DNA of 64,000 nucleotides from Polyangia bacterium. GTDB lineage: Bacteria; Myxococcota_A; Polyangia; Nannocystales; Nannocystaceae. A program made the position numbers and the translations under genes. The stretch lies in the NCBI GenBank assembly GCA_030430565.1, contig JAUIKS010000004.1, forward strand, positions 397,992 to 461,991. Direction: 5' to 3'. The stretch's first letter is position 1, and every line of letters starts with the position of its first letter. The notes beneath the pieces are model-generated. The model was not told where the DNA came from, ran no database searches, and saw only the letters and a program-made list of their open reading frames with translations. This document shows, in pieces, positions 9,895 through 12,119 of this stretch.

Positions 9895-11346
9895 ATGTCT
9901 GAGGTCGTCACTCCCACCGCTTCATCCTCGACGGAGGTCGCCGCCGCGGCCGTCGCTCCCGGTGACTCGGCGTCCGGTCGGGGCGCGGAGACGCGCGCCG
10001 GCGCCCGTCAGTCACCTGTCCCTGTGACCACGCTCAGCGGCTGGGGCAACGTGCCGGCCCCCGGGCGCGAGCGCCTGAGCGAGCGGCTCGAGCGCGCGAG
10101 CGCGGGCGCGGTCTTGTCGCGCGGGCTCGGGCGCTCCTACGGCGACTCGTCGCTGCCGCCCTCGACCGACCCGGTCGTGCTCGGGACCCGCCTGGCCGAT
10201 CGCGTGCTCGACTTCGACCCCGAGACCGGCGTGATCCGTGCCGAGGCGGGCCTCTCGCTGCTCGCGCTCAACCGGATGCTGATCCCGCGGCGGTGGTTCA
10301 CGCCCGTCACCCCGGGCACGCAGTTCGTGACCCTCGGGGGCATGGTCGCGGCCGACGTGCACGGCAAGGGCCATCACCGCGCGGGCTGCTTCGCCAGCAA
10401 CCACGTCCGCGCGCTCAAGCTCCGCGTCGCCGACGGCCGCGTGCTCGAGGTCTCGCACGAGCAGCACCCCGAGCTGCTGCGCGCGACCTTCGGCGGCATG
10501 GGCCTGACCGGGCACATCCTCGAGGTCGAATTCACGATGCGGCGGATCCCCTCGCCGTGGATCTGGTCCGAGAGCCGCCGGATCGACGACCTCGAGGAGT
10601 TCATCGCCACGATCAAGGAGACCAGCGGCGACTGGCCCTACCAGGTCGGCATCGTCGACGGCATCGCGCGCGGCAAGCAGCTCGGGCGCGGGATCCTCGA
10701 CTACGGCCGCTGGGCGACCGCCTCCGAGGCCCGCGGGCGGCCAGTGCGGTTTAAACGGCGCGTCACGGTGCCCTTCGCGATGCCCGCGGCGCTGCGCCAG
10801 CGCTGGTCCGTCGGGCTGTTTTACAGCCTGCTGATCGGCAAGCACGTCCCGCGGCACAAGCAGCACGGGCTGCGCCACTTCGAGAGCTTCTTCTACCCGC
10901 TCGACACCTTTCGTCGGTGGAACCGGCTCTACGGCCCTCGCGGCTTCACGCAGTACCAGTGCGTGCTGCCGAACTCCGCCGGCGTCGAGGCGGTGCGGCG
11001 CTTCCTCGAGCTGATGGCGCGCGAGGGCGGCGTCCCGTACCTCGCGATCATGAAGGACTGCGGGCCCGAGGGGCAGGGCATGCTCTCGTTCCCGATGGCC
11101 GGGACCTCGCTCGCGCTCGACTTCCCGATCGACGACGACACGCAGCGCCTCGTCGATCGGCTCAACGAATTCGTCATCGAGGCGGGCGGCCGGATCTATC
11201 TGGCCAAAGACAACTTCACCCGCCCGGAGCACTTCGCGGCCATGGAGCCGCGGCTCGCCGCCTGGAGGGCGGTGCGTGAGCGGTGGGACCCCGAGGGCGC
11301 GCTGCGCTCGGCGCAGTCCGTCCGCGTGCTCGGGGATCAGCCGTAG
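9895..11346 (+). CDS. dprE1: Decaprenylphosphoryl-beta-D-ribose 2'-oxidase-like FAD oxidase (DprE1 orthologue)
   Basis: Block-by-block similarity to mycobacterial DprE1: GWGN, GLGRSYGD, VTLGGMVAADVHGKGHH, GGMGLTGHILEVEF, FFYPLDTFRRWNRLYGPRGFTQYQCVLP, IYLAKDNFTRPEHFAAMEP. Start moved to ATG 9895 (MSEVV). Confidence 0.8.
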   Translation: MSEVVTPTASSSTEVAAAAVAPGDSASGRGAETRAGARQSPVPVTTLSGWGNVPAPGRERLSERLERASAGAVLSRGLGRSYGDSSLPPSTDPVVLGTRLADRVLDFDPETGVIRAEAGLSLLALNRMLIPRRWFTPVTPGTQFVTLGGMVAADVHGKGHHRAGCFASNHVRALKLRVADGRVLEVSHEQHPELLRATFGGMGLTGHILEVEFTMRRIPSPWIWSESRRIDDLEEFIATIKETSGDWPYQVGIVDGIARGKQLGRGILDYGRWATASEARGRPVRFKRRVTVPFAMPAALRQRWSVGLFYSLLIGKHVPRHKQHGLRHFESFFYPLDTFRRWNRLYGPRGFTQYQCVLPNSAGVEAVRRFLELMAREGGVPYLAIMKDCGPEGQGMLSFPMAGTSLALDFPIDDDTQRLVDRLNEFVIEAGGRIYLAKDNFTRPEHFAAMEPRLAAWRAVRERWDPEGALRSAQSVRVLGDQP

Positions 11347-11375
11347 GAGCGCGTCAGCGAACGCGAGGGAACGCC

Positions 11376-12119
11376 ATGAACATCGTCATGCTTGGAGCTA
11401 CCCGCGGGATGGGTCGCGCGCTCGCGCGGCTGCTAGCGGAGCGCGGGGATCGGGTGTTCCTGCTCGGCCGCGACCCCGCGGAGCTAACGCGCAGCGCCGC
11501 CGACCTCGCCGTGCGCGCCCCCAACCACAAGGGCTTTCGCGGCCACGCGCCCTGCGACCTCAGCGACCCCGGCAGCTTCGCCCCGGCGCTGCGCGCCGCC
11601 GAGGGCGCGCTCGGACGGATCGACATCATCGTCGTCACCGCCGGCATGTTCGCGACCCAAGAGGAGCTCGAGCTCGACATCGATCGGACCGAGCAGCTGC
11701 TGCGCGTCAACTTCACCAACACGGTCGTGTTCTGCGAGCACGCCCGCAACACCCTCATGGCGGCCGGCGGCGGCACGCTCTGCGTGTTCTCCTCGGTCGC
11801 CGGCGATCGCGGGCGCAAGCCGGTCGCGCTCTACGGCGCGAGCAAGGCCGGCCTCTCGCACTACCTCGAGAGCCTCGATCACCGCTTCCGCGATCAAGGG
11901 CTCGTGACCATCTGCGTCAAGCCCGGCTTCGTCAAGACCGGGATGACCGCCGGGCTCAAGCCGCCCCCCTTCGCCGGCGAGCCCGAGGAGGTCGCGCACG
12001 ATGTCCTCAAGGCCATCGACGCCGGGCGCCCGCTCGTCTACTCGCCCTCGATCTGGCGCTGGATCATGCTCGTCATCATGCACCTCCCCCGCGCCGTCAT
12101 GCGCCGCGTCGGCTTTTAA
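11376..12119 (+). CDS. dprE2: Decaprenylphosphoryl-2-keto-ribose reductase-like short-chain dehydrogenase (DprE2 orthologue)
   Basis: SDR Rossmann motif GATRGMGRAL and YGASKAG. The C-terminal WRWIMLVIMHLPRAVMRRV matches the DprE2 tail FRYVMMVLRHIPRSIFRKL. Lies immediately downstream of dprE1. Confidence 0.75.
   Translation: MNIVMLGATRGMGRALARLLAERGDRVFLLGRDPAELTRSAADLAVRAPNHKGFRGHAPCDLSDPGSFAPALRAAEGALGRIDIIVVTAGMFATQEELELDIDRTEQLLRVNFTNTVVFCEHARNTLMAAGGGTLCVFSSVAGDRGRKPVALYGASKAGLSHYLESLDHRFRDQGLVTICVKPGFVKTGMTAGLKPPPFAGEPEEVAHDVLKAIDAGRPLVYSPSIWRWIMLVIMHLPRAVMRRVGF

Follow-up and report, generated by a model that had tools for sequence, protein, structure and literature searches.

A DprE1/DprE2-like gene pair in a myxobacterial contig

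The DNA analyzed here, referred to as the window, is a stretch of 64,000 nucleotides from contig JAUIKS010000004.1 of a Polyangia bacterium and contains two adjacent genes, designated E1 and E2, whose products are, judged from their sequences, genuine relatives of the mycobacterial enzymes DprE1 and DprE2. A preliminary description of this DNA had placed the pair at 9895-12119 as two genes, which is correct, with both open-reading frames on the + strand (Table 1). The third-position GC of both reading frames is high (0.89-0.92) in a window of ~70% GC, and a spacer of 29 nt separates the E1 stop codon from the E2 start codon. Read from the ATG, E1 is 483 aa long, and its conserved core, which begins at an in-frame GTG, is 440 aa. 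Conservation among homologues begins at this GTG, and the same start is annotated in a 90%-identical homologue (P0001, 440 aa). The N-terminal extension is of low complexity (MSEVVTPTASS...) and has a similar counterpart in a related locus, L001 (MTEIASAPSASS...), so the true start of E1 is ambiguous between the two codons. No signal peptide or transmembrane (TM) segment was found in E1 or E2.

E1 contains a VAO/PCMH-type FAD-binding domain (Pfam FAD_binding_4, PF01565, 8.5e-16), and its best matches in the PDB are the DprE1 proteins of Mycobacterium tuberculosis (Mtb) and M. smegmatis (E = 3e-70, ~35% identity, full length), with the next PDB family reaching only 2.7e-05. E1 aligned to positions 25-446 of the 449 in the NCBIfam DprE1 model, NF053785, with 356.5 bits (2.6e-106), and no other FAD oxidase model in NCBIfam exceeded 47.6 bits, the lactone-oxidase, alditol-type, and glycolate-oxidase models included. 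E2 is a classical short-chain dehydrogenase/reductase (SDR; Pfam adh_short, 3.9e-33) with the Gly-rich cofactor motif, the serine, and the Tyr-x3-Lys motif in place, and its best PDB match is Mtb DprE2 (E = 5.7e-28, 29% identity), to which residues 3-246 align at positions 11-252 of 254. This alignment covers the C-terminal tail, which in E2 is an amphipathic segment (PSIWRWIMLVIMHLPRAVMRRVGF). Full-length alignment of both proteins to their mycobacterial counterparts, DprE2 tail included, had been put forward in the preliminary description and is borne out by these PDB matches.

The E1 active site is conserved and position 387 is an alanine

To compare individual residues, the Mtb DprE1 sequence was rebuilt from the printed PDB alignment and the numbering was checked on ten known residues. 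In this alignment, Tyr60, His132, Lys134, Gln334, Gln336, Lys367, Tyr415, and Lys418 of the Mtb enzyme are all identical in E1. They comprise catalytic and substrate-site residues of the Mtb enzyme that contact the ribose and FAD, Lys418 being the catalytic lysine. Two other positions differ, Asn385 being a serine in E1 and Cys387 an alanine. Cys387 is the residue that benzothiazinones bind covalently, and it defines drug sensitivity and not activity. Alanine occupies position 387 in 20 of 21 aligned non-actinobacterial homologues, the window included, and the remaining homologue (L019) has a threonine. Given the replacement of Cys387 by alanine and of Asn385 by serine, covalent benzothiazinone sensitivity is not expected. 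The inhibitor-binding cysteine position that the preliminary description had singled out for attention is thus filled by a different residue in this protein.

E1 and E2 are strictly paired in a distinct clade

E1 matched at least 7,900 database proteins at E <= 1e-20. The closest relative among the matches listed comes from a Myxococcales metagenome-assembled genome (MAG) and has an E1 that is ~90% identical (89-90% depending on the tool) in the same gene neighborhood, followed by hundreds of proteins at ~60% identity, Nannocystis and Sandaracinus included; the myxobacterial origin of the window is supported by these relatives. No record identical in sequence to E2 turned up in an exact look-up. 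The whole DprE1 family amounts to ~1,460 clusters at 50% identity (E <= 1e-30). In neighbor-joining (NJ) trees, the method used for all trees here, the window falls in a clade of members at least 50% identical to E1 with a bootstrap of 100/100. This clade is common in Myxococcota and in metagenomes. Its annotation is uneven, the NCBI name for close E1 relatives being merely "FAD-binding oxidoreductase" and the JGI annotation of many relatives being decaprenylphospho-beta-D-ribofuranose 2-oxidase. A search of the literature on DprE1 and DPPRS in Myxococcota found no paper treating this pathway there.

Loci of the clade were fetched and their genes called with a crude longest-ORF/GC3 script. E2 lies directly downstream of E1 in 74 of the 80 metagenomic clade loci, and in the other six the contig ends less than 100 bp from E1, giving adjacency in 74/74 loci with room for it. 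A natural E1-E2 fusion protein of 698 aa was also found (P0375), the C-terminal part of which matches the E2 of the window at 6e-30, tail included. Four representatives of similar size (P0445, P0452, P0470, and P0482; ~690 aa) are putative fusions, with the fusion verified for P0375 only.

The strict pairing and the fusion, the linkage to UbiA-family genes within the same clade that is described below, and the scores of lactone-, alditol-type, and glycolate-oxidase models (at most 48 bits, against 356 for DprE1) make it very unlikely that E1 is an unrelated oxidase of the VAO family for sugars, alditols, or lactones, with soluble metabolites as substrates and a generic SDR as a chance neighbor. 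Such an enzyme would account for a weak match to the C-terminal Pfam domain ALO (arabinonolactone oxidase; 0.0014, under the cut-off) and for immediate neighbors in the window that are unrelated to glycan synthesis.

The clade is linked to a UbiA-family phosphoribosyltransferase

Clustering of the neighboring open-reading frames at 95 clade loci returned one functionally informative recurrent partner, an unfused UbiA-family protein of ~290 aa. A commoner neighbor, a Ser/Thr-kinase/TPR family present at 12 loci, is generic in Myxococcota. The best NCBIfam models of the linked UbiA proteins are decaprenyl-phosphate phosphoribosyltransferases, matched over the full length. An E1-E2-UbiA operon is present in L013, L021, L022, L047, L073, L087, L092, and L104, and L061 has a PRK08238-type UbiA gene immediately upstream of E1. 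L041 and L042 share with the window an FMN-reductase gene divergent from E1; at these two loci, the UbiA gene lies 5-6 kb from the pair, beside murJ, the gene for the lipid II flippase. The operon-linked proteins score 163-193 bits against cut-offs of 207-234, and those of L041 and L042 score 238.2 (cut-off 234, reached) and 231 (just short), respectively. The UbiA-linked loci are dispersed over the clade tree and do not form one branch.

Loci or genomes with the transferase also include L107 and L108, two Myxococcales MAGs in which murJ and the UbiA gene lie ~6 kb from an FMN_red/E1-E2 module with the same arrangement as that of the window. Proteins homologous to the L041-type UbiA (57-80% identity) carry the NCBI name decaprenyl-phosphate phosphoribosyltransferase in the window's own lineage, namely in Nannocystis exedens, Enhygromyxa salina, Pseudenhygromyxa, and Nannocystaceae and Myxococcales MAGs. 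One further genome keeps murJ and the UbiA gene with E1/E2 elsewhere, and the UbiA clade was found unlinked in L023-L026. Since the transferase and E1/E2 are often apart in these relatives, E1/E2 standing alone, as they do here, is a normal condition for the pathway. A divergent pairing of murJ with the UbiA gene was seen in Nannocystaceae-like genomes both with and without E1/E2 nearby (Table 1).

The DprE1 phylogeny envisaged in the preliminary description was run as an NJ tree. The window lies in a clade with UbiA-linked members, disfavoring the alditol-oxidase scenario raised there, and this clade is distinct from the actinobacterial enzymes (100/100).

Additional membrane proteins recur near these operons. 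A flippase-like LPG_synthase_TM/TIGR00374 (MprF-type) protein is encoded directly after the UbiA gene in four of the E1-E2-UbiA operons (Table 1), and a related protein is encoded beside a distant E1 homologue in L018. As a candidate for flipping the lipid-linked pentose, this protein differs from the GtrA and MATE candidates of known systems. L018 and L019 are distant E1 relatives (34-39% identity) that lie beside HAD-UbiA fusions. Flanking the L021 operon are exosortase/EPS genes, a gene for a HAD phosphatase, and one for a protein of 558 aa that has 8 TM segments but lacks any Pfam hit; this last protein is no more than a candidate GT-C glycosyltransferase. Two other suspected GT-C proteins were discarded: the very large polytopic open-reading frames upstream of E1 at eight metagenomic loci are histidine kinases, and the 533-aa protein with 13 TM segments encoded next to UbiA in L041 proved to be MurJ.

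In L041 and L042, the UbiA gene has a cytochrome P450 gene as a neighbor, a setting that could also suit a tailoring module of a secondary-metabolite pathway, making, for example, the arabinofuranosyl unit of a myxobacterial natural product. Macrolides of this kind with arabinofuranose exist in myxobacteria (gulmirecins and disciformycins; PMC11852209). Such a role is nevertheless highly improbable for the pair, as no polyketide synthase, non-ribosomal peptide synthetase, or glycosyltransferase genes were found near it in the window or in syntenic relatives, and the pair is conserved at 55-65% identity over hundreds of metagenomic loci whose flanking genes vary, a pattern more in keeping with a core function in the envelope.

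E1 and E2 are likely to form a polyprenyl-phospho-ribofuranose 2'-epimerase

E1 and E2 are thus homologous to DprE1 and DprE2, with the active site of E1 intact, occur strictly as a pair, and belong to a clade linked to a phosphoribosyltransferase. Given the full-length homology, the intact active site, and the transferase-linked clade, a polyprenyl-phospho-arabinofuranose product is the best reading of the pair. E1 and E2 are therefore likely, on the strength of sequence comparison, to act together as a polyprenyl-phospho-ribofuranose 2'-epimerase making a polyprenyl-phospho-D-arabinofuranose donor, and probably perform the same conversion of ribose to arabinose as the mycobacterial enzymes.

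The two genes would constitute an operon for a two-step epimerization of polyprenyl-phospho-beta-D-ribofuranose. E1 would oxidize the 2'-hydroxyl of the ribose to a keto group at the conserved His/Lys/Gln/Lys site, and E2 would reduce the keto group from the opposite face with NAD(P)H, yielding polyprenyl-phospho-D-arabinofuranose. The substrate would derive from phosphoribosyl pyrophosphate (PRPP) through the action of a UbiA-family polyprenyl-phosphate phosphoribosyltransferase, with its gene at another place in the genome, and subsequent 5'-dephosphorylation. The product would be flipped over the membrane, where a putative membrane glycosyltransferase may attach arabinofuranose to a glycan or glycoprotein of the envelope. 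In a Gram-negative host the lipid is probably undecaprenyl phosphate, following the systems described in PMC11127046.

Compared to Mtb DprE1/DprE2, the window pair shares the adjacency of E1 followed by E2, the full-length homology (~35% identity for E1, 29% for E2), the FAD-binding domain, the catalytic residues, the Ser-Tyr-Lys motifs of the SDR, and the C-terminal tail. It differs in scoring under the NCBIfam equivalog cut-offs, in belonging to a separate clade, in the changes of Cys387 to alanine and Asn385 to serine, and in not being clustered with Rv3806c-, Rv3789-, Emb-, or Aft-type genes.

A Gram-negative parallel is Pseudomonas aeruginosa Pa5196/PA7, in which DPPR synthase, DprE1, and DprE2 are needed for pilin arabinosylation and DprE1 has 33% identity to its Mtb counterpart (bioRxiv 10.1101/2020.04.19.049825). 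The D-arabinofuranose (D-Araf) cluster of this organism, PsPA7_6245-6249, encodes a phosphatase, DPPR synthase, a GtrA-like protein, DprE1, and DprE2 and feeds the arabinosylation of pilins by TfpW (bioRxiv 10.1101/2020.04.19.049825). Likened through this published description, the two pairs share a Gram-negative host, a similar divergence from Mtb, a cytoplasmic location without signal peptide, and a glycosyltransferase that is unlinked from the sugar-donor genes. The identity of E1 to the Mtb enzyme (~35%, versus 33% for the experimentally validated P. aeruginosa DprE1) lends support by likeness. The synthase, phosphatase, and GtrA-like genes cluster with E1/E2 in P. aeruginosa, whereas the window pair is alone, with no TfpW or pilin genes near it.

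DprE1/E2 homologues were also reported by Kelly et al. (2024) in modification systems of Araf-containing Gram-negative glycans (PMC11127046). The three-component systems for pentofuranose side chains of O-antigens consist of a PPPRS-PRP fusion, a MATE flippase, and a GT136 GT-C enzyme, with optional epimerases (PMC11127046). The concept of forming undecaprenyl-phospho-ribofuranose from PRPP, with epimerization by DprE1/E2-type enzymes when the glycan has Araf, is shared with the pathway proposed here. In contrast to these systems, the UbiA protein of the window clade is short (~290 aa) and unfused, the candidate flippase is LPG_synthase_TM-like and not of the MATE type, no GT136-like or other GT-C neighbor was found, and there is no O-antigen cluster context.

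Several observations weigh against this assignment. E1, at 356.5 bits, falls short of the curated equivalog cut-off of NF053785 (500 bits), and E2 scores 146.1 bits with the DprE2 model NF053786, for which the cut-off is 250; the top NCBIfam model of E2 is in fact PRK07102, an unnamed SDR family, at 209.2 bits (cut-off 267). In the NJ tree, the window clade is separated from Mtb DprE1 as well as from the homologues L015 (Myxococcaceae) and L016-L019 (Proteobacteria and Acidobacteria). The UbiA gene is operon-linked in ~10% of the clade loci, with none within reach in ~90%, and no GT-C gene was found next to clade members with Pfam and NCBIfam models at ~110 loci. Within the window itself, Pfam and NCBIfam searches and TM prediction found no UbiA transferase, flippase candidate, or recognizable GT-C.

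The distinct clade, the sub-threshold scores of both proteins, the missing GT-C partner, and the general lack of linkage between the pair and the UbiA gene, together with the housekeeping-like position of that gene beside murJ, could also be expected of enzymes that carry out the same oxidation and reduction on a lipid-linked pentofuranose with another substrate or fate, such as another lipid carrier, a pathway that ends with a ribosylated lipid, or formation of a keto compound or a different epimer in place of an arabinose donor. We consider this unlikely. The residues that touch ribose and FAD in the Mtb enzyme do not vary, the linked UbiA proteins are best matched over their full length by models of PRPP-using decaprenyl-phosphate phosphoribosyltransferases, and the similarly divergent P. 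aeruginosa enzymes do make a D-Araf donor. The arabinofuranose donor remains the favored product. The term "bona fide" used in the preliminary description is too strong for a pair with 356.5 of 500 and 146.1 of 250 bits in a separate clade. Of the further proposal made there, that a polyprenyl-phospho-arabinofuranose donor and arabinosylated glycans are implied, the donor is the best reading through the transferase link of the clade, and the glycans are a prediction one step further on from a window with neither UbiA nor recognizable GT-C genes.

Surroundings of the pair in the window

The flavin reductase that had been described as divergent to E1 is indeed encoded next to it and belongs to the NADPH-dependent FMN reductase family. 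This arrangement occurs in 11 of 80 clade loci with room upstream and is confined to one subclade (L001, L003, L028, L037, L038, L041, L042, L055, L065, L107, and L108), across which the FMN reductase is 61-82% identical and E1 58-90% identical and the other flanking genes differ. In L103, the FMN-reductase gene lies ~1.7 kb upstream of E1 and is not adjacent to it. The kept adjacency could reflect co-regulation or mere retained synteny. A role of the FMN reductase as a functional partner in flavin or quinone recycling was considered and rejected, as its gene is kept next to E1 in one subclade only and E1 needs an oxidant and not a reductant.

Table 1 Coordinates of features in the window and in related loci (positions in the window unless a locus is named)
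Feature	Position	Strand	Basis
E1, DprE1-like FAD-dependent oxidase gene	ATG 9895 or in-frame GTG 10024 to TAG 11346	+	ORF, homology
E1 codons for His132 and Lys134 equivalents (HGK), both conserved	10360..10368	+	alignment to Mtb DprE1
E1 codon for Cys387 equivalent, Ala here	11113..11115	+	alignment to Mtb DprE1
E1 codon for Lys418 equivalent, conserved (YLAKD)	11206..11208	+	alignment to Mtb DprE1
GAGGGA, ribosome-binding-site-like (Shine-Dalgarno-like) motif, 5 nt upstream of E2 start	11365..11370	+	read from sequence
E2, DprE2-like short-chain dehydrogenase/reductase gene, 247 aa	ATG 11376 to TAA 12119	+	ORF, homology
E2 cofactor motif GATRGMG (Gly-rich)	11394-11414	+	sequence motif
E2 SSVAG, containing Ser139	11790-11804	+	sequence motif
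E2 YGASK (Tyr-x3-Lys)	11832-11846	+	sequence motif
NADPH-dependent FMN reductase family gene, divergent from E1	9057-9692	-	Pfam FMN_red 2.3e-27
~68-nt repeat elements, two copies	12133-12200 and 12273-12341	+	
Very large Ser/Thr kinase	3705-7289	-	
Very large Ser/Thr kinase	19623-23933	+	
ADYC-domain protein	7879-8958	+	
ADYC-domain protein	24630-25766	+	
Major vault protein homologue, 901 aa	30651-33356	-	Pfam MVP_shoulder 1.7e-08, Vault_3 2.9e-06
TerB-domain protein	33572-34150	-	
Polytopic membrane protein, ~432 aa	36980-38278	-	
LPG_synthase_TM gene after UbiA	L047, 5155-6354		
LPG_synthase_TM gene after UbiA	L087, 13073-14101		
LPG_synthase_TM gene after UbiA	L092, 5936-6994		
LPG_synthase_TM gene after UbiA	L104, 10430-11890		
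murJ/UbiA pairing	L041, 9973-12706		
murJ/UbiA pairing	L107/L108, 8184-10876		
murJ/UbiA pairing	L110-L113, 8197-10879		

The pair's other neighbors here have nothing to do with glycan synthesis and include kinases, ADYC-domain proteins, an AidB-like dehydrogenase, and proteases. The two ADYC-domain proteins and the two very large Ser/Thr kinases, one of which has TPR repeats and the other an nSTAND1 NTPase, a PEGA, and an FGE-sulfatase domain, are typical myxobacterial content. A scan of positions 9000-12700 for sigma-70 promoters and intrinsic terminators found nothing. Just past the E2 stop codon, the intergenic DNA contains two near-identical elements of ~68 nt, 140 nt apart, which consist of exact blocks of 42 and 30 nt with a single-base indel between the blocks. 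The two copies in the window compare with 0 expected by chance, and none was present in the 113 fetched loci.

Further away, the window encodes its single polytopic membrane protein, with ~10 predicted TM segments and an Arg-rich C-terminus; it had no Pfam, NCBIfam, or PDB match, and its single-sequence AlphaFold model was unusable (mean pLDDT 46.6). The window also encodes a homologue of the eukaryotic major vault protein (MVP), which matches rat MVP in the PDB at E = 3e-21 over its own residues 317-876 and is adjoined by a TerB-domain protein.

Implications

D-arabinofuranose is best known from the cell walls of mycobacteria and from a few Gram-negative surface glycans. The pair described here belongs to a distinct clade and is not the first occurrence of DprE1/E2 outside the Actinobacteria, the setting that the preliminary description had put in front; such homologues are already described in P. 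aeruginosa (bioRxiv 10.1101/2020.04.19.049825) and for Gram-negative Araf glycans (PMC11127046). The known picture is in this respect unchanged, and annotation pipelines already label many members of the clade accordingly.

It is possible, and we propose it tentatively, that a large clade of Myxococcota, with some relatives in Acidobacteriota and Binatia, makes the polyprenyl-phospho-D-arabinofuranose donor in a conserved, housekeeping-like envelope pathway. In this pathway, the DPPRS gene would lie beside murJ, E1/E2 would be strictly conserved, an MprF-type flippase-like protein would replace GtrA or MATE, and a glycosyltransferase family beyond current models would use the donor to build an arabinofuranosylated glycan of the envelope.

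If the assignment of E1 is right, E1 and its kin would be DprE1 relatives that are naturally insensitive to benzothiazinones through Ala387 and usable for comparative enzymology. Nannocystaceae-like myxobacteria and many uncultured relatives would then make a lipid-linked D-arabinofuranose donor, which predicts an arabinosylated envelope component and an unrecognized transferase in a phylum studied for its surface-dependent social behavior.

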